From NCBI GenBank assembly GCA_963748825.1, contig CAVVKN010000010.1, forward strand, positions 140,760-204,759: a DNA stretch of 64,000 nucleotides, written 5' to 3'. Both the position numbers and the translations under genes were made by a program. Of this stretch, positions 3,987-39,668 are shown piece after piece. The notes beneath the pieces were generated by a model. It did not search any database and was not told where the DNA came from. It saw only the letters and a program-made list of their open reading frames with translations. Within the stretch, counting starts at the first letter, position 1. Each line of letters opens with the position of its first letter. This DNA is from Methanotrichaceae archaeon (GTDB lineage: Archaea > Halobacteriota > Methanosarcinia > Methanotrichales > Methanotrichaceae).

Positions 3987-4114
3987 TATCTGGGATGAGA
4001 ATGGCTTTTGCCCAGAGCGTCTAAACAAGCATTGAAGAAGTCGATAGACAAGCTACAAGCTGGCGAAAAAGCCAGCTCTATTCTTTAATCCATAGAAATC
4101 GCGAAGGACGAATA

Positions 4115-4655: not shown

Positions 4656-4737
4656 GTTATCTCCTCCCTGATTGATGTATTTCTCTGTATAAACCTTCCC
4701 ATAGATAGACGGAATTCAGGACGAATTTTGTTTCTTG

Positions 4738-5370
4738 TTAGCCCTTGATAATCGTGCCGCCTTCTCCGCTCTTCAAGGCTTTGGTGAATTGCTGCGCATC
4801 AGTGCCATTGAGTACCCAGATGCTGCTTCCTTTAAGAGGGCCACAGAGAAGTTTAATTGTGCCCTGATCGATGCAGCTAACGCGACCCAGCATACGGTTT
4901 GCCGGCACCTCTAAAACTACTTTTCCATCCAGCATCACGCCATCCACATCAGTAGCCTTGATGAGAGGGGCGGATAGCTGCGCCGCTACCAGGGCCGCCA
5001 CCGAATCGGAAGTATAGTCCCAGTTATGCAGGAGACCGCGATCGTCCTCAATGAGGGCCTGGTAAGGCAATAGAACCTGCACGCTGCAATCACTTTCAGA
5101 GCGGCGAATATCCCTGGTGAGAGCAGCCCCGCTTCCGTCCGCCAGAAAATAGGCATACTGCTCCATGGCTAAAATGGCCATCCAGTGCGCGGCCTCCTGG
5201 CTGAGATCGCCGCGAGAATAGATCTCTCGCACCAGATCGGCCATGGGACCGCCGCCCGGCACCACCAGGAAGCTGTAGCCCTCCTCCACGAGAGCCAGGA
5301 GAGCACGCATGAGCGGTCGAGCCCAAGTCATGAGGCTCCCTCCCATCTTCAGCACATAAAATGGCATCAA
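4738..5370 (-). CDS. mfnE: Amino-acid-kinase family protein, MfnE-like (methanofuran biosynthesis)
   Basis: KMGGSL, VPGGGPMAD, AHWMAILAM, WDYTSDS and TDVDG motifs. Confidence 0.75.
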   Translation of the reverse strand: MMPFYVLKMGGSLMTWARPLMRALLALVEEGYSFLVVPGGGPMADLVREIYSRGDLSQEAAHWMAILAMEQYAYFLADGSGAALTRDIRRSESDCSVQVLLPYQALIEDDRGLLHNWDYTSDSVAALVAAQLSAPLIKATDVDGVMLDGKVVLEVPANRMLGRVSCIDQGTIKLLCGPLKGSSIWVLNGTDAQQFTKALKSGEGGTIIKG

Positions 5371-5592
5371 TAATAGTAATCGCGCCTCCTATTAGAGCTT
5401 CGTCATTGGACCAAATATGAGGCAAGCAAGGGCAAAATATTTTTTGCAGATTCGTCTATGGCAAAAAGGATAGCTAAAGGCCGATTGGATGTAGGGTAGG
5501 GAGGGATCTGTGAATAATCGACCTTTGCCGTAAAAACATCCGTCTTCGGTCGTAGATAAGCCTTTTGCTTGTGACGATGGAAATTTAGCACA

Positions 5593-33029: not shown

Positions 33030-33590
33030 ATTCTGTCGGATAGATTTTCTGGAGGGCGACGGCCAGGCCGTAACTCCGGTGGAGTACAAGCGGAGCGAAG
33101 CGCCCAAGACACAAGGCTTTTACGAGCCGCATCTGATCCAGCTTGCTGCTCAGTGCCTGGCCCTGCGGGAGATGGAGGCGGAAAAAGAGCTTGAAGGCAA
33201 GCCCGAAGAGGAAAAGATCAGAATGCTCCTCGCCTGCCGGGACGATCAGGTGCCGGTTTACGTGGTGGGCCAGGGCAAGACGGTTCGAAAGCGTGGCGAG
33301 CGGTTGGAGGTCTGGTCTTATGAAGAAGGCAAGATCAGCGAAGCCCGGATCAGGGAGATCTCCAAGATCTGCCTTTACAGAGGAGTGGAGATCACCACTC
33401 CGGCCATGGTGGAGCTGATGCAAAGGAATGTGCCGGTGCTGCACTTCTCCCACGGCGGCTGGTTTCAGGGTATTTGTCTAGGCATGAGCCACAAGAATGT
33501 TCTCTTGCGCATCAAGCAGTTCCAGGGGCAGGAGATGAGGAGAAGTCGCTATCCATTGCCAGAAAGATCGTATCCGGAAATTCAAATCTA
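33030..33590 (+). pseudogene. cas1: cas4-cas1 fusion remnant (type I-G/I-U-like), internally deleted and frameshifted
   Basis: Cas4 part CRIDFLE..PVEYKR..QLAAQCLALRE is joined directly to a Cas1 N-terminus PVYVVGQG..RKRGERL..ITTPAMVELM..HFSHGGWFQG..KNVLLRIKQF; the shifted frame continues SLSIARKIVSG. Confidence 0.85.
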
Positions 33591-33593
33591 TTT

Positions 33594-36566
33594 TTACCTA
33601 ACTTCTGCTAGTCGCTCCTCATATCGCCCTGCGGCAGGGAACACTCTTCCCAGAGCGCTGGCCAACTCTTCCAGGCGCACGGGCTTGCTGATGTAGTCAT
33701 CCATTCCTGCCTCGATGCATCTTTTCCTGTCGCCCTCTAAAGCGTGCGCAGTGACTGCGATTATGTGAGGCGATCCATTCGGCCAGCGTTCGCGAATGGC
33801 CTTTGCCGCATCAAAGCCGTCCATCTCTGGCATTTGCACATCCATCAGGACCACGTCATAGTTCTGGCGTTCCAAAGCCTGCAAGACCTCTCTGCCGTTG
33901 GCTGCCACATCCGCTCTGATCCCCAGCTTCCTGAGCATGAGCAGGGCAACCTTCTGATTTACCAGATTATCCTCTGCAATCAGCAGCTTCAAATGGCCAG
34001 GAATATCTTGCTGCAAATCGACCATATTGGGCTTCTTTTTCATCTCCAAACATTGCTCTGGTGTCGCTTCATCAGCCAGAATTGTGAAGCCAAATGTGCT
34101 TCCCCTGCAAATTTCGCTTTGCGCCCAAATGGTCCCGCCCATAAGCTGCACCAGCTTTTTGCTGATGGCTAGACCCAAACCCGTTCCGCCATATTTGCGA
34201 GTGGTAGACATATCCACCTGGCTAAAGGACTGGAAGAGGCTGCTCATGCGATCCTGGGGAATGCCGATCCCCGTATCTCTGACCGAGAAGAACAGCTTAG
34301 TCTTTCCATTCTCCTGGCCGTCGCCCGAGACATGTACCGATACCTCTCCACGGTCTGTAAACTTGATTGCATTGCCGAGGAGGTTTATTAAGACCTGGGA
34401 AATGCTGGTGGCGTCTCCCTGCAGCCTCTTCGGAATGCAGTCATCAATATGATAATAAAAATGGATATACTTCTTCGCAGCAATGGGCTTGAGCAAGTCC
34501 ATGGCATCTTCAATGCATTTGCTTAGTTCGAAGGGCTGCTTTTCTATCTCCCTCTTGCCTTCTTCGATCTTGGAGAAGTCCAAGATATTGTTGATAACGG
34601 ATACGAGGATATCACCGCTGCTACGCACCGTCTCCAGGCAATCTTTTTGATCTGGCAGAAGAGGAGTATCGAGAAGTATTCCCGTCATGCCTATGATGGC
34701 GTTGAGGGGAGTCCTGATCTCATGGCTCATATTAGCCAAAAATTCGGATTTGGCGCGAGCAGCGGCTTCTGCATCCTCTTTGGCCTTGCGAAGAGCCTCT
34801 TGTGCCTTTTTGCTATCGGTAATATCCCGTACCAATAGTAAAAACGTGTCCTCTCCGCCAGGGTTGATGCGCGCCTCAAAGAATGACATCTTGCCATCTA
34901 TAATGAGCGCATACTCGAAGATCTGCATCTTTCTGGTTTTTTTGGCCTGATTCACATGATAAAGAGCCTGGTCAACCATATCCTCCGGTAGAAGATCCTG
35001 CATTTTCTTGCCCAGAAATGACTGAGGAGGCAAGTAGAGTGGTGATGTCTCCTGCACATTATAGTCCAAAAAGGTGCCGTCCTCGGCGATCAGGAACATC
35101 ATATCGGGAATTGCATCCAGAAGAGATCTATTCTTAGCCTCGTTTTTTTTCAGCTCCATTTGAGCCCTCATGCGCTCTGTTATATTGCGCACGGATTCAA
35201 TGGCACCGGTGACATTGCCTTCAGAATCGTAAAGTGCCGTTGCACTTCCCTGCAAAAAGGCCTCGCCCCCCCTCATATTGGGCATAAAGCCCTCCCAAAA
35301 GATATGGCCGTCTTCCTGTCTCATCATTTTATCGTAAAATTCATTCGAAATCCAATATCTTCTGCCCCACTCGTCATATTCATCCGGTGATTCCTTATTA
35401 TATTCAAGCACGATATCGGCAAGCGTCGGCCGGCGTTTGCCATAAAAAGGAAGCGCATACTCATAATGGCCTTTTCCCAGCATATCTTTGGCAATAATAC
35501 CGGTCATCGCCTCGATAGCCCGATTCCAGGCTATGACTGTGCCCTGTCTGTTAATAACAAAGGTGGCGTCTGGCAGGAAATTGATAATATCCGCCAGGCG
35601 GCGTTCGGAGTCTTTTAGCGCATCTTCAGCTTCTTTTCGATCAGTTATGTCTCGTATGGATTCAATAGCTCCAATTAATTCTCCCTCGTTATCCCGAAGA
35701 GGGGATGCTGTAGCCCAGACATAAGTTCTCTGGCCGGCCAATAAAAAAGGTGCCACCGATTCGGCATAGAGGGTATCCCCTTTCTTTTCCACATAACGGT
35801 ATTGAGACCTGGTCTCTGGATTGTCGCCATATATCAGGTCGACCAGAATAGGCCGTTGCTCTCCATAAAAGGGAACGCTGTATGCATAGTCGCCCTTTCC
35901 TATTATCTCCTGTTTTTTGATGCCGGTCATTTCCTCTATGGCCCGGTTCCAGGCAATCACTTTCCTGCTCTTATCTATGACGAAGGTGGCATCAGGCAGA
36001 AAGTCAATTATGTCCATAAGCTGGCGGCGGGTGAGATTCGCCACCTCATCCGAACTAAAGCTCTTTTTTGCTTCTTCGCATATAAGCTGATTTCCCCCAT
36101 TTTCCTGCTGGACAGCTGCAAATCGTATGGTCTTTTTCGTCCCATCCTTGCAGGTTACCGTAAAGGTCCGGCACCTCTTGGCGCCAGCTCCAATTTCATT
36201 TTTATCTTTGATCCAGGCTGCTATGGCAGCATTTCGATAATCTGGGTCAGGAAAGGCTCTCTTAAACCATTCTCTTCCGCACGAAATCTCTTCTAGATCA
36301 TAACCAAAAATCTCGATAAATTTAGGATTTATGCTGCAGAATGTCCCGTCTTTTTCAATGATGGCAATAGCTAAAGGAGCGTTTTCGATAATGCTGGTGA
36401 TGTTTCTGCTTCTATCCTCCAGCTCTTCCAGGCCGACTATAAGACGCTCTACCGTCTCTGAAACGGCCCGGCAAGTCGGGCAGGTCTCTGCGATTTTACT
36501 GCCAAGCTCATCTAATGTGAGGCTGATCTCATTTATCTTATCGCTAAAATAGCTGCCCATAACCAA
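33594..36566 (-). CDS. Multi-PAS hybrid sensor histidine kinase with C-terminal receiver
   Basis: Four PAS-type repeats; [15 protein letters not shown]-box; NAIKFT; DTGIG; GGTGLGL; receiver LMDVQMP..KP. Confidence 0.95.
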
Positions 36567-36750: not shown

Positions 36751-37628
36751 GGTAGTGTACCTTAAATAAGTTTATATGTCTTCATCGCATAATTTAACCG
36801 GGGAAAGCAATGAAGGCAGATCGATTAGCTTTAGCAGGTTCGTTTTGTTGGAATAGAGGCTGTACAAGCTATGGCAAAGTGGATCACGGAAACATTGTCC
36901 GATACGGTCGTACTGCCAAAGGCACGCAGCGTTTGAAATGCAAAATATGTGGCAGTGTTTTTGTAGGTAATAAAGGGACTATATTTTATGGTCTGCATCA
37001 TAGCCCAAAAGAGATCCTAGAATGCTTGTCTCTGCTTGCTGAAAGGAACAGTCTGGCAGCCATCCATAGAACTAAAGGAATAAAAGAGGAAACCGTTATG
37101 GATTGGCTCCATAAAGCAGCAAACCATGCTGAGGAGATCGAAGCGTTATTGCTTGCCAATCACCATCTGACTCGTGTTCAGCTTGATGCCATGTGGACCT
37201 ATGTAGGTCACGAAGGGGAAAAAGCAACCATTCCGAGGAGCCCGATCGAGGTACATTCTGGCGGGGTACTGCTATAGATATTGATACGAGGTTGAGGGTT
37301 GCACGTGCAATAGGAAAGAATGAGGAAGAAGTCGCAGTGGTTATGATGTCGCAAATAAAAGATCGCTACAACCCCATTGAACCTCCCGCGATATCAAGCG
37401 ACGGAAATGATAGTTATCCTGAAGCAATGCTTGAGATCTGGGGTAAGTTGCCCGAATACAATGGTCGAGGAAGACCTCCTACTCACAAACAACCGCAACC
37501 TGGATGGAAATGCCTTCAAGTGACCAAGCATCGTTCTGGCAGAAGGTTGGTTGGCGTCACTCACAAAGTGGCCTACGTGATGATGTTAGTTGTTTCTGAA
37601 AGGAACAACGCATAATGGGGAGACTACC
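36751..37628 (+). mobile_element. IS1-family insertion sequence (InsA-like 36810-37277 plus InsB-like to 37615), probably truncated
   Basis: Ends GGTAGTGTACC / GGGAGACTACC; Zn finger C-N-C..QRLKCKICG; HTH; QLDAMWTYVG; GGGGAAAAAG slippery site; SDG second Asp; C-terminus short. Confidence 0.8.
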
Positions 37629-37662: not shown

Positions 37663-38667
37663 TCAATCAGATTTGTGAACCTGAAAGTCAATGACCACAT
37701 TGCTTCTGTGGGGTGCATAACTTCTTACTATCTCTTTGTAGAGCACTTCCCCTTCGGCACCTATCTCCTCAGCCGCCTTTCTTAACAGAGCCTCATCCCT
37801 GTAAAGATCATCTTCTGGAGCTATGCAGTAGTAATGGATGATTCCCTCCGGCTTTGCCGCCCTCATGGCAGGAATTAAGAATGCAGATGCGCTGTGGGGA
37901 AGGTTCATGATCACATGATCTGCTCGGTTCTCGTAGCGCAGGGCCAGCTCTGCAGCATCGCCTTCCAGGATCTCGATGCGCTTTATTTTATTCAAGAGCG
38001 CATTCTCTCTCAGGTATTTCACAGCGACGGGATTCTTGTCCATGGCGATGACGTTTGCCCCCTTTTTTGCCAGAAGCAGGGCGAACGGCCCCACACCTGC
38101 GAACATATCGAGAACGACGTCACCAGATCGAACCAGGCTGGCGATTCTTAGCCTTTCTGTGCCCAGGCGAGGAGTGAAATATGCCCCTTCCAAGTCTACC
38201 CGGTAGCGCAGGCCGTGCTCCTTGTGGAGGGTGACGGTTCGAATCTCTCCGGCCACATGCCGGAAGCGGCGGGTGCGAAATTCCCCTTCTACGTCAGAGA
38301 TGGGAGCAATGACCGTTTTTATGCTCTTGCTGGTGGACATGAGGGCGGCGGCCACGCGCTCTGCATCACTGTCCTCTATCATGGCAATGTCGCCCACCAC
38401 CTCGAAGCTGGGCCGAAAGCCCAAAAGATCCTCCGGGCTTGGCACGCACTCTTCCTGCTGGAAATTGATATGCACCAGTTCAAACTCTGCAATGCTGCCG
38501 ACCATAGCGGCTGACTTTTCATCCATCTCCAAAACCGGCAGATAGACATGGGATTCATCCGAGCAAATCTTGCGGGTGCGATCGAATGTGCCCATCTCCA
38601 CCAGAGCCTTGCGAATTTTCTCTCCACTTTTTCGGCTAACCTTCAAACCCAGGGATTTATCCAGCAT
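37663..38667 (-). CDS. trm5: Trm5-family tRNA methyltransferase (class I SAM)
   Basis: VVGDIA, YFTPRLGTER, DMFAGVGPF and IMNLP motifs. Confidence 0.85.
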   Translation of the reverse strand: MLDKSLGLKVSRKSGEKIRKALVEMGTFDRTRKICSDESHVYLPVLEMDEKSAAMVGSIAEFELVHINFQQEECVPSPEDLLGFRPSFEVVGDIAMIEDSDAERVAAALMSTSKSIKTVIAPISDVEGEFRTRRFRHVAGEIRTVTLHKEHGLRYRVDLEGAYFTPRLGTERLRIASLVRSGDVVLDMFAGVGPFALLLAKKGANVIAMDKNPVAVKYLRENALLNKIKRIEILEGDAAELALRYENRADHVIMNLPHSASAFLIPAMRAAKPEGIIHYYCIAPEDDLYRDEALLRKAAEEIGAEGEVLYKEIVRSYAPHRSNVVIDFQVHKSD

Positions 38668-38865: not shown

Positions 38866-39138
38866 ATGCTAAAGCGCAATAATGGCAGCAAGGCAATATC
38901 GGCATCCGAGATCTCGCAATATGTCTACTGCCCAGTCTCATGGTACCTGAAAAGATGCGGAGTGCAGCCGCAATCATACGGCCTGAAGAGAGGAATCGAT
39001 GCGCATGAAAAAGCGGGAAGCAGGCTGGTCCTTCTAGAGAGACGGGAGAGGGCGGCCGGAGTATTCCGATTGATGGGCTATTTCTCTGTGGTTGCTGCAA
39101 TTTTGCTCATGGGATGGGTTTTATGGACTTATTTTTAA
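38866..39138 (+). CDS. Cas4-like nuclease N-terminal half with C-terminal TM helix
   Basis: ISASEISQYVYCPVSWYL...RGIDAH (Cas4 N-terminal Cys motif), then hydrophobic YFSVVAAILLMGWVLWTYF. Confidence 0.75.
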   Translation: MLKRNNGSKAISASEISQYVYCPVSWYLKRCGVQPQSYGLKRGIDAHEKAGSRLVLLERRERAAGVFRLMGYFSVVAAILLMGWVLWTYF

Positions 39139-39668
39139 TTTTATTTTCCTTAGTTTTGGTTCTCTTGATTTTAGCCGTTGCTTTCCAATTGCTGTCAAAG
39201 AGAGAGTCGTCATCGGCAAAAACCATGCGCATGGTTTATGGAATTCCTGCGGGAAAGGTGATCTACTCTGATCTGGACCGCCCAGGAAAGGCCCTGTATT
39301 CCAAGAGCCTCGGCATCAGCGGCAAGCCGGATTACATAGTCAAAGGCAGAGGTCGCAGCTTGATTCCCGTGGAAATTAAGAGCGGACGAGCCCAAGAGCC
39401 CCATAGAAACCACGTCATGCAATTGGCGGCATACTGCTATCTGGTAGAAGAGAACTACCACAGGTCGGTTCCCTATGGGATAATTGTATATTCCGATGCA
39501 AAACAGCATAGAATCAATTTCGATAAATACCTGAGATCCGATTTGCTGGCAACGGTAGACGAGATGAAGAGGGCTTTAGGGCATGATTGTCCCAAGAGAA
39601 CGCATAACTATAAACAAAAATGCCGCCACTGTTCATTTAGCGGCAGCTGCAAGAACAGTCTGGTGTAG
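39123..39668 (+). CDS. Cas4-like PD-(D/E)xK nuclease C-terminal half with N-terminal TM helix
   Basis: TM LFLILFSLVLVLLILAVAFQLL; GISGKPDYIV, PVEIKS, QLAAY and CRHCSFSGSC motifs. Confidence 0.85.
   Translation: MDLFLILFSLVLVLLILAVAFQLLSKRESSSAKTMRMVYGIPAGKVIYSDLDRPGKALYSKSLGISGKPDYIVKGRGRSLIPVEIKSGRAQEPHRNHVMQLAAYCYLVEENYHRSVPYGIIVYSDAKQHRINFDKYLRSDLLATVDEMKRALGHDCPKRTHNYKQKCRHCSFSGSCKNSLV

Follow-up and report, generated by a model that had tools for sequence, protein, structure and literature searches.

Here, we report a gene pair from a Methanotrichaceae archaeon that probably encodes, in two translationally coupled genes, a single Cas4-family nuclease of the PD-(D/E)XK type that is cut within a transmembrane (TM) hairpin. 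The pair occupies positions 38,866 to 39,668 of the window, by which is meant the whole stretch of 64,000 nucleotides that was analysed (assembly GCA_963748825.1, contig CAVVKN010000010.1, positions 140,760 to 204,759 of the forward strand). The motifs of the Cas4 family are divided over the two genes, a hydrophobic helix is found on either side of the cut, and the two-piece layout occurs across many archaea and some bacteria and is undescribed in the literature searched. An initial annotation of this DNA had already proposed two overlapping open reading frames (ORFs) in different frames with a 16-nt overlap, the Cas4 motifs being distributed between them, with the N-terminal cysteine and the G..H motif in gene 1. 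The coordinates and sizes given there match ours, C22 and G43..H47 are present in gene 1, and every motif named could be read directly from the sequence. The features of the pair are as follows.

38866-39138 (+): gene 1, 90 aa (P0001), start ATG 38866, stop TAA 39136-39138; Cas4 N-terminal module and C-terminal TM helix, with E15, C22, W26 and G43..H47 (motif I)
38929-38931 (+): Cys22 codon of gene 1, predicted fourth [4Fe-4S] ligand, supplied in trans
39004-39006 (+): His47 codon of gene 1 (G..H motif), suggested counterpart of SSO0001 His62 by position
39073-39135 (+): TM helix 1, gene-1 residues 70-90, tail anchor predicted from hydropathy
39123-39668 (+): gene 2, 181 aa (P0002), start ATG 39123, stop TAG 39666-39668; N-terminal TM helix and Cas4 nuclease core, with D70, E84, K86, H97, Q100, Y104, C167, C170 and C176
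39123-39138 (+): overlap of gene 1 and gene 2, 16 nt, or 25 nt if gene 2 starts at ATG 39114
39129-39194 (+): TM helix 2, gene-2 residues L3-L24, N-out signal anchor predicted from sequence and hydropathy
39621-39650 (+): CX2CX5C of gene 2 (C167, C170, C176), three predicted iron-sulfur (Fe-S) ligands

Relative to the reading frame of gene 1, that of gene 2 is -1; the alternative start of gene 2 at ATG 39114 would give a protein of 184 aa.

Two genes with the parts of one Cas4

Gene 2 is a Cas4 by curated thresholds. In hidden Markov model (HMM) searches it scored 48.3 bits against PF01930 (curated cut-off 22.7) and 92.4 bits against TIGR00372 (cut-off 65), the latter match covering model positions 61-179 of 180. 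Its motifs are GKPD (D70), VEIK (E84, K86), QLAAY (Q100, Y104) and C167-x2-C170-x5-C176, and in an alignment of 62 sequences the invariant residues include D70, E84, K86, H97, Q100, Y104, C170 and C176, with C167 being kept in at least 90% of the sequences. Across the 77 split loci described below, GKPD is found in 74, hExK in all 77, Q..Y in 76 and CxxCx4-6C in 74. A profile of gene 2 matched the solved Cas4 structures 8d3l (E 1.9e-10), 4r5q, 4ic1 and 7mi4, and the pairwise ratio of nonsynonymous to synonymous substitution rates (dN/dS) against the window had a median of 0.19 among 14 relatives, 2 others being skipped for indels.

The portion of the family model that precedes the match of gene 2 is matched by gene 1, which carries ISASEISQYVYC(22)P and G(43)IDAH(47) and then ends in 21 hydrophobic residues. 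Gene 1 matched TIGR00372 at model positions 1-45 (E 0.0088, 15.9 bits), the PADLOC Cas4 model PDLC01447 at positions 3-49 (E 1.2e-5) and PDDEXK_1 at positions 2-43 (E 0.034). Weak as these matches are, they always fall to the Cas4 family and always to the N-terminus of the model; TIGR00372 was matched at E <= 0.01 by 31 of 62 gene-1 homologs, and the sole other family matched was cas4g_cas1g, in 3 of the 62. The HMM check on each ORF that had been suggested beforehand thus sets gene 2 above both cut-offs and lets gene 1 fit as its missing N-terminus. Five residues of gene 1 are invariant in an alignment of 62 sequences (E15, C22, W26, G43 and H47), and the G..H motif, like a cysteine within the first 35 aligned residues, is present in all 77 split loci. 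With a median pairwise dN/dS of 0.22 against the window (16 relatives), gene 1 is under purifying selection, which together with the five invariant residues answers the question of its conservation that the initial annotation had raised.

Read across the two chains, the RecB-type motif set is complete, with H47 coming from gene 1 and D70, E84, K86, Q100 and Y104 from gene 2, and the four-cysteine pattern is likewise assembled from C22 of gene 1 (77/77) and CxxCx4-6C of gene 2 (74/77). According to the available text of PMC13621843, the metal site of SSO0001 consists of His62, Asp99, Glu113 and Lys115. The spacing of the motifs suggests that H47 of gene 1 is equivalent to His62, and if so, the metal site as well as the four-cysteine cluster site would be composite.

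Conservation of the split and the nature of the junction

Within the family, 81 genomes were searched with gene 2 and a strong match (E 1.6e-42 or better) was found in 35 of them. The next-best match had an E-value of 8e-14, a gap which separates the orthologs cleanly from canonical Cas4 paralogs. The best 30 loci were analysed, the window's own included, and in all 30 a homolog of gene 1 is located directly upstream of gene 2. The stop codon of gene 1 is at the equivalent place in these 30 loci (TAA in 16, TAG in 2 and TGA in 12), and 29 of them have gene 2 in the -1 frame. A wider scan, using one genome per GTDB species, found 583 relatives, of which the best 80 loci were kept; some genomes are common to this set and the family set, and the split or fused state was judged with HMMs built from the family sequences. 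Among these best 80 of 583, the split layout is found in 77 and the fused one in 2, with 1 further locus truncated by a contig end, and the frame of gene 2 in the 77 split loci is -1 in 73, +1 in 3 and the same frame behind a stop in 1. The taxa represented are Methanothrix/Methanotrichaceae, other Methanosarcinales, Methanocellaceae, Methanofollis and many Thermoplasmatota, and further Chloroflexota, a Syntrophobacterales bin and a Blastocatellales bin. Conservation of the two-gene layout, which the initial annotation had put forward as a check, is accordingly found both in the family and in loci of several phyla. Two of the records, labelled 'Chloroflexia bacterium' (L059) and 'Methanoregula sp.' (L045), are 87-88% identical to the window's Methanothrix gene 2 and are probably mis-binned Methanothrix contigs; gene 2 of L059 is interrupted, with only HMM positions 74-180 matching, in another frame.

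The reach of the family was also assessed with a profile of gene 1, matches being counted as cluster representatives at 50% identity. There were 1302 representatives at E <= 0.001 and 287 at E <= 1e-10. The best 150 of the 1302 comprise 142 stand-alone proteins of at most 140 aa, 7 fused forms longer than 200 aa, in which two to four hydrophobic stretches are present, and one member of 187 aa that is apparently a misframed call. A hydrophobic segment is present in 136 of the 142 stand-alone proteins and a cysteine within the first 45 residues in 140. Neither of the two stand-alone clusters that were looked up had a name attached, while a fused cluster (P0132) includes a 266-aa protein of Methermicoccus shengliensis annotated as Cas4. 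On the side of gene 2, nearly all of the homologs listed (120 of 134) are 147-208 aa long, which is the size of a stand-alone gene 2, and of the four longer ones only P0121 is truly fused, the other three being out-of-frame extensions. In these three (P0044, P0079 and P0084) gene callers have extended gene 2 upstream in its own frame to 242-308 aa, and the extensions, being out-of-frame readings of gene 1, mimic fused forms in length tables.

In the fused forms, the part corresponding to gene 1 sits where the N-terminus of Cas4 belongs. The hydrophobic insert is kept in the fused relatives L079 (311 aa) and P0121 (266 aa), and a TM-less single-chain relative (L088, 205 aa) matches positions 1-179 of 180 in TIGR00372 with 83.5 bits. 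A quick maximum-likelihood tree of 73 gene-2 domains agrees largely with taxonomy: 27 rows from Thermoplasmatota group together with support 97, and 19 rows from Methanotrichaceae with support 89. The fused P0206 groups with a split Methanofollis sequence (support 100), the fused P0150 is placed inside the Chloroflexota clade (support 97), and four fused forms make up a clade of their own (support 95). Since fused forms are found in at least three supported places of the tree, the state has changed more than once. The tree resolves neither its backbone nor its root, and the branches leading to the outgroup are very long (5.6 and 6.1), so that no claim is made here as to which state came first.

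The junction itself reads T TTT TAA in the window, and this five-T run is placed exactly where one extra T would join the two frames. An indel introduced by sequencing or assembly could thus have split a single ORF artificially, which the initial annotation had named as a threat to its proposal. Such an origin is hardly conceivable in light of the homologs, which are not one continuous ORF: the stop and the change of frame recur in 30/30 and 77/80 genomes, many of which have no T-run, and the homologs of gene 2 have stand-alone sizes with the single exception given above. Logan contigs from three independent DNA runs, two belonging to named studies and the third being without a study name, span 39107-39143 with 0 gaps and without any insertion or deletion being listed. 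The indel was therefore rejected. Conservation of the split, the three gap-free assemblies and the dN/dS values of 0.22 and 0.19 together mean that sequencing error or a pseudogene is excluded for practical purposes. Coverage gaps at 39181-39291 (X4) are without meaning.

A second reading of the same tract is that programmed -1 frameshifting of the ribosome, or slippage during transcription, at T TTT TAA yields one Cas4 polypeptide with two TM helices. Mechanistically this could work, as the P-site tRNA-Phe could move from TTT 39133-39135 to TTT 39132-39134 with the stop in the A site, and the existence of fused forms indicates that a joined protein is viable. The -1 relation in 29/30 and 73/77 loci also agrees with it. 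However, the slippery run is absent in close relatives, where the stop site reads TTC TAA, ATC TAA (L015) or ATC TGA (L019), and assorted codons are found elsewhere. In the clade of the window (Methanothrix), an ATG is kept instead at -13, counted from the start of the gene-1 stop codon, mostly accompanied by an ATG or GTG at -22, and more distant family members and other phyla have four-base overlaps of the form ATGA, GTGA or TTGA. An NTGA overlap of four bases is the usual signature of translational coupling, and since such overlaps yield the -1 frame, they produce the constancy of this relation equally well. Frameshifting is also at odds with the three loci in the +1 frame, with the one in the same frame after a stop and with the genes of a Bacillus subtilis plasmid (see below), which do not overlap.

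Speaking for frameshifting are 20 of the 73 loci in the -1 frame, mostly Thermoplasmatota, in which no ATG, GTG or TTG was found near the junction. Yet these vary in the last sense codon (TTA, CTA, CCA or TCA) and keep an ATA overlapping the stop as well as an upstream GGTGAT, and initiation fits this arrangement better than slippage. We consider frameshifting very unlikely and read the pair as two coupled cistrons, because start codons are kept, NTGA overlaps occur and the plasmid genes are separated by a gap of 4 nt. Among the 20 loci without a canonical start, which include L074, L075, L081, L083, L084, L089, L091, L096, L101, L107, L109 and L112 with their junctions near locus position 4000, the ATA overlaps the gene-1 stop in 18 (ATAG or ATAA), and 19 show, a short way upstream, a GGTG or GAGG that resembles a Shine-Dalgarno sequence and in many cases is part of GAGGTGATTTTATAG. 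One of the 20, L071, has a TTG at -1 from the stop, outside the bounds of the scan. From its sequence, this arrangement looks like conserved ATA initiation or termination-reinitiation, in analogy to the ATGA overlap.

Membrane anchors and the predicted composite enzyme

Both of the TM helices that had been proposed, one in each gene, correspond to hydrophobic segments that are conserved over the 77 loci. In the window, the segment at the end of gene 1 (residues 70-90) has a Kyte-Doolittle 19-residue maximum of 1.99, and the median of the best windows in the gene-1 tails of the 77 loci is 2.37, with a minimum of 1.52. The 22 residues L3-L24 of the window's gene 2 are uncharged, and the gene-2 heads have a median best window of 2.84; the single low value, -0.34, is that of L059 with its broken gene 2. 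The median net charge is +2 in the 12 residues before the gene-1 helix and +3 in the 12 residues after the gene-2 helix, and only a few residues extend beyond the helices. According to the positive-inside rule for membrane topology, gene 1 would then be oriented N-in/C-out and gene 2 N-out/C-in, so that both soluble parts would be cytoplasmic, a predicted location that fits cytoplasmic Fe-S assembly. No residue within either helix is invariant in the alignments of 62 sequences; it therefore seems that the helices anchor and dimerise the proteins and do not form a channel.

The complex of the two proteins was predicted from alignments of gene 1 and gene 2 that we built ourselves, in three runs and with 3 controls. 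The interface score ipSAE was 0.79, 0.80 and 0.95 (median 0.80), as against 0.00 for the best of the controls. At least 95% of contacts are common to the runs, the partners have a pLDDT of at least 81, and the number of contacts is 199-212. Contacts with the least predicted error join gene-2 residues 11-25 to gene-1 residues 78-64, which corresponds to an antiparallel hairpin; this predicted pairing of helices is without counterpart in the single-chain Cas4 structures matched by the gene-2 profile. In the predicted complex, gene-1 residues 10-30 and 42-48 touch gene-2 residues 64-71, 85-87, 94-104 and 166-178, and the cysteine and histidine regions of gene 1 are thus placed against the catalytic and cysteine-rich regions of gene 2. 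The complex prediction that the initial annotation had recommended hence puts the cysteine-bearing N-terminus of gene 1 against the cysteine-rich C-terminus of gene 2.

These observations can be combined into one model, in which a single Cas4 enzyme would be cut at the outer turn of an inserted TM hairpin. The tail-anchored 90-aa product of gene 1 would supply C22 as the first cysteine ligand of the Fe-S cluster and H47 as the histidine of motif I, and the N-out/C-in product of gene 2, with its 181 aa, would supply D70, E84, K86, the QxxxY motif and the three other cysteines. The two helices would pair in antiparallel fashion in the membrane with both soluble parts toward the cytoplasm, where these parts would rebuild the Cas4 fold, the active site and the [4Fe-4S] cluster both being composite.

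Several points weigh against this model or narrow it. The binding of the two proteins, the Fe-S cluster, the activity and the membrane insertion are all predictions, and the complex prediction shows a likeness and is no proof of binding. The ipSAE mark is reached by 58/80 solved complexes and 2/110 mismatched pairs, counts which are only a rough calibration here because of the author-built alignments; moreover, since the proteins are halves of a split gene, the score may stem from solved single-chain Cas4 structures. The TM calls are based on Kyte-Doolittle 19-residue hydropathy and charge. Gene 1 alone scores under every curated family cut-off, and its profile gave only chance-level matches to PDB sequences (E 0.44 or worse), with no solved structure among them. 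Orthologs have a patchy occurrence, in 35 of the 81 family genomes sampled. Clustering of the neighbours in the 80 loci by blastp revealed no conserved functional partner, only clade-specific housekeeping genes. With the queries used, 0 of 137 pattern matches in IMG/VR contigs were confirmed and 50,697 phage records gave no tblastn match; this lack of viral relatives, taken with the patchiness, points neither to a core function nor to a role in mobile defence. The sole RNA trace is one contig of 228 nt from one metatranscriptome run, at 39296-39523 within gene 2, and as DNA carry-over is possible and no start or end is visible, it is no real evidence of transcription.

Some of these points could also be explained if the pair were a decaying remnant, or if gene 2 worked alone and gene 1 were an unrelated small membrane protein. 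The low scores of gene 1 and the lack of the pair in 46 of the 81 sampled family genomes would then be expected. In the text available of PMC12501428, cysteine mutants of the Methanosarcina mazei Solo-Cas4 are without cluster and yet nuclease-active, so that a cysteine supplied in trans is possibly dispensable for catalysis. A gene in decay or unrelated to its neighbour would, however, hardly be under purifying selection with five invariant residues, the Cas4 cysteine and histidine among them, nor would the cysteine and the hydrophobic segment be expected to recur as they do among the 142 stand-alone proteins in the best 150 profile matches. Gene 1 is in addition always directly upstream of gene 2, is found at the Cas4 N-terminus whenever the two are fused, and has a large predicted interface with gene 2. 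An unrelated or decaying gene 1 is for these reasons highly unlikely, and the two-gene nuclease is retained as the preferred reading.

Genomic setting, possible role and known relatives

In the window, the pair is flanked by the divergent trm5, as had been annotated, by a small tetratricopeptide repeat (TPR) gene and by surE. The features upstream of the pair are as follows.

37663-38667 (-): trm5 (Trm5/TYW2 methyltransferase), divergent neighbour, outside the system
36810-37615 (+): IS1-like element or remnant between the kinase gene and trm5, with overlapping ORFs 36810-37277 and 37193-37615
33079-33696 (+): truncated Cas4g/Cas1g-like ORF of 205 aa, 5.2 kb upstream of the pair

The pair is not beside cas1/cas2 or an array. 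Within 30-46 kb of the window the search revealed no repeat array, and no cas gene is among the conserved neighbours in the 80 loci. The two full Cas1 genes of the genome are on other contigs (C24 and C12), beside ordinary Cas4 genes. The statement that neither an array nor a cas operon is adjacent stands, with one correction for the Cas4g/Cas1g-like fragment. In the Cas4g/Cas1g model, which has 546 positions, the match of this ORF is confined to 198-309 (E 1.4e-31), and in Pfam Cas1 to positions 1-92 of 283. The ORF runs at its end into the 3' end of a histidine-kinase gene encoded on the opposite strand, and is probably a decayed adaptation gene of type I-G-like origin. It is separated from the pair by the histidine kinase, the IS1 fragments and trm5, and is not conserved with the pair. 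For ORF 36810-37277 of the IS1-like element, the match is to a transposase of the IS1 family (E 1.7e-15) with a zinc-binding N-terminus.

The conserved neighbours of the 80 loci differ between clades. Trm5 is found in 28 loci, all of the Methanotrichaceae/Methanosarcinales set, and in the Thermoplasmatota an eRF1/pelota-like gene is found in 23 loci, alanine dehydrogenase (AlaDH) in 25 and saccharopine dehydrogenase in 19. In five genomes of the same genus without an ortholog, trm5 is retained, and no trace of the pair could be seen next to it. In one genome of the same genus without the split pair, an ordinary Cas4-like gene is located about 1.3 kb from trm5 on its other side (L122, G066:C2, 1-279), which is probably coincidental. 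Among the one-off neighbours are a coupling protein of a type IV secretion system (T4SS) (L106), a HerA-like ATPase with a Cdc6-like AAA protein (L098), SbcCD-like genes (L077) and DEAD-family helicases (L067 and L071). Each of these occurs once, and they are leads, not evidence.

The Bacillus subtilis plasmid NZ_OX419568.1 contains at 4703-5441 (L123) a two-gene, two-anchor Cas4 layout of 81 aa and 162 aa with a gap of 4 nt between the genes. The two proteins match the pair HMMs with E-values of 2.9e-7 and 2.6e-29 (Z = 1e6), and both have hydrophobic segments. A DinG/XPD-like helicase is encoded two genes upstream, hfq is located downstream, and a primase-like gene is nearby; two further B. 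subtilis plasmids match likewise. Since this plasmid has the two-gene layout, the question of function is testable in a tractable host.

Our best guess as to function, made from motifs and models, is a cytoplasm-facing, membrane-tethered and metal-dependent nuclease that acts on DNA ends. As the predicted enzyme is tethered to the membrane, its action would be placed there, and we tentatively favour a role in trimming or destroying linear DNA that enters the cell or is moved at the membrane. About equally likely, and thus no more than a plausible option in itself, is that the same architecture serves housekeeping, in DNA repair, recombination or chromosome handling at the membrane. The stable synteny with housekeeping genes within clades (trm5 in 28 loci and the eRF1/pelota-like gene in 23 Thermoplasmatota loci) and a tree that largely follows taxonomy, with its Thermoplasmatota (97) and Methanotrichaceae (89) clades, are in keeping with such a role, and so are the lack of viral relatives in the IMG/VR contigs and phage records searched and the mainly vertical inheritance of solo-cas4 genes in general, as given in the main text of PMC5704561. 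Repair-like neighbours, such as the SbcCD-like genes of L077, the helicases of L067 and L071 and the DinG/XPD-like protein of the B. subtilis plasmid, point the same way. A repair nuclease has, on the other hand, no obvious need of a membrane anchor, the pair is patchy even within the genus, with five genomes that keep trm5 and lack it, and two bacterial loci adjoin membrane DNA translocases (the T4SS coupling protein of L106 and the HerA-like protein of L098).

A more far-reaching, and rather doubtful, version of the entry-DNA role is that of a widespread two-subunit membrane nuclease gated by its own assembly, standing guard at the membrane by destroying or trimming DNA that passes through it during injection by a virus, conjugation or uptake. 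The active site and the [4Fe-4S] cluster would in this case exist only once the tail-anchored and the head-anchored halves had met in the membrane. If true, this would be a CRISPR-independent innate function of the Cas4 fold and would provide an answer to the question of what solo-Cas4 does. Whichever role applies, the 1302 cluster representatives of gene 1 at 50% identity define a large unnamed subfamily, and as there are usually two genes, two chains would jointly form the catalytic metal site and the Fe-S cluster. The pair may serve as a natural system for the study of Fe-S ligation in trans, and likewise of tail-anchored insertion in archaea. Annotation pipelines label gene 2 'Cas4', which may inflate the counts of CRISPR adaptation genes.

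Canonical single-chain Cas4 proteins, among them SSO0001 (4IC1), Pcal_0546 (4R5Q), the type I-C Cas4 (8D3L) and a Cas4/Cas1 fusion (7MI4), belong by HMM to the same family as the pair and share with it the D, ExK and QxxxY motifs as well as one N-terminal and three C-terminal cysteines. In contrast to these, the pair is cut between motif I and motif II, where about 80 residues including the two TM helices have been inserted. Canonical Cas4 is moreover soluble, forms part of the adaptation module and consists of a single chain of ~160-220 aa, whereas the pair makes two TM polypeptides away from cas1/cas2. As there are two polypeptides, each with a TM helix, we call the pair a variant and not an ordinary member of Cas4. 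Fused relatives are single polypeptides with two TM helices (such as Methermicoccus shengliensis, 266 aa; L079; P0121); these belong to the same subfamily, have the TM hairpin and the motifs, and are intermixed with split forms in the tree, but account for 7 of the best 150 gene-1 matches as compared to 142 stand-alone proteins.

TREX1 is, according to the available part of PMC10802300, an exonuclease of the animal endoplasmic reticulum with a C-terminal tail anchor, which faces the cytosol and removes cytosolic DNA. The likeness to the pair is an analogy only, since TREX1 has a DEDD fold, a single chain and no Fe-S cluster, and is eukaryotic.

The solo-Cas4 lineages are likewise among the nearest known systems. 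In the main text of Hudaiberdiev et al. 2017 (PMC5704561), solo-cas4 genes are described as present in most archaea and as evolving vertically like ordinary genes, and their role is acknowledged to be an open question. The words 'transmembrane' and 'split' are both absent from that main text, and its supplements may already contain the clade; the searchable literature, at the level of listings and abstracts, describes no TM or split Cas4. The Solo-Cas4 of M. mazei was purified as one soluble oligomeric protein, as stated in the text available of Rentz et al. 2025 (PMC12501428), and differs in this from the form reported here, which is predicted to be two-subunit and membrane-anchored. As far as the accessible parts of the two papers go, the pair resembles the solo-Cas4 lineages in its non-CRISPR location, its mainly vertical inheritance and its moderate purifying selection. 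It is found outside CRISPR-cas loci, with clade-specific synteny and a tree largely congruent with taxonomy, and from its sequence is best described as a split, putatively membrane-anchored branch of solo-Cas4.

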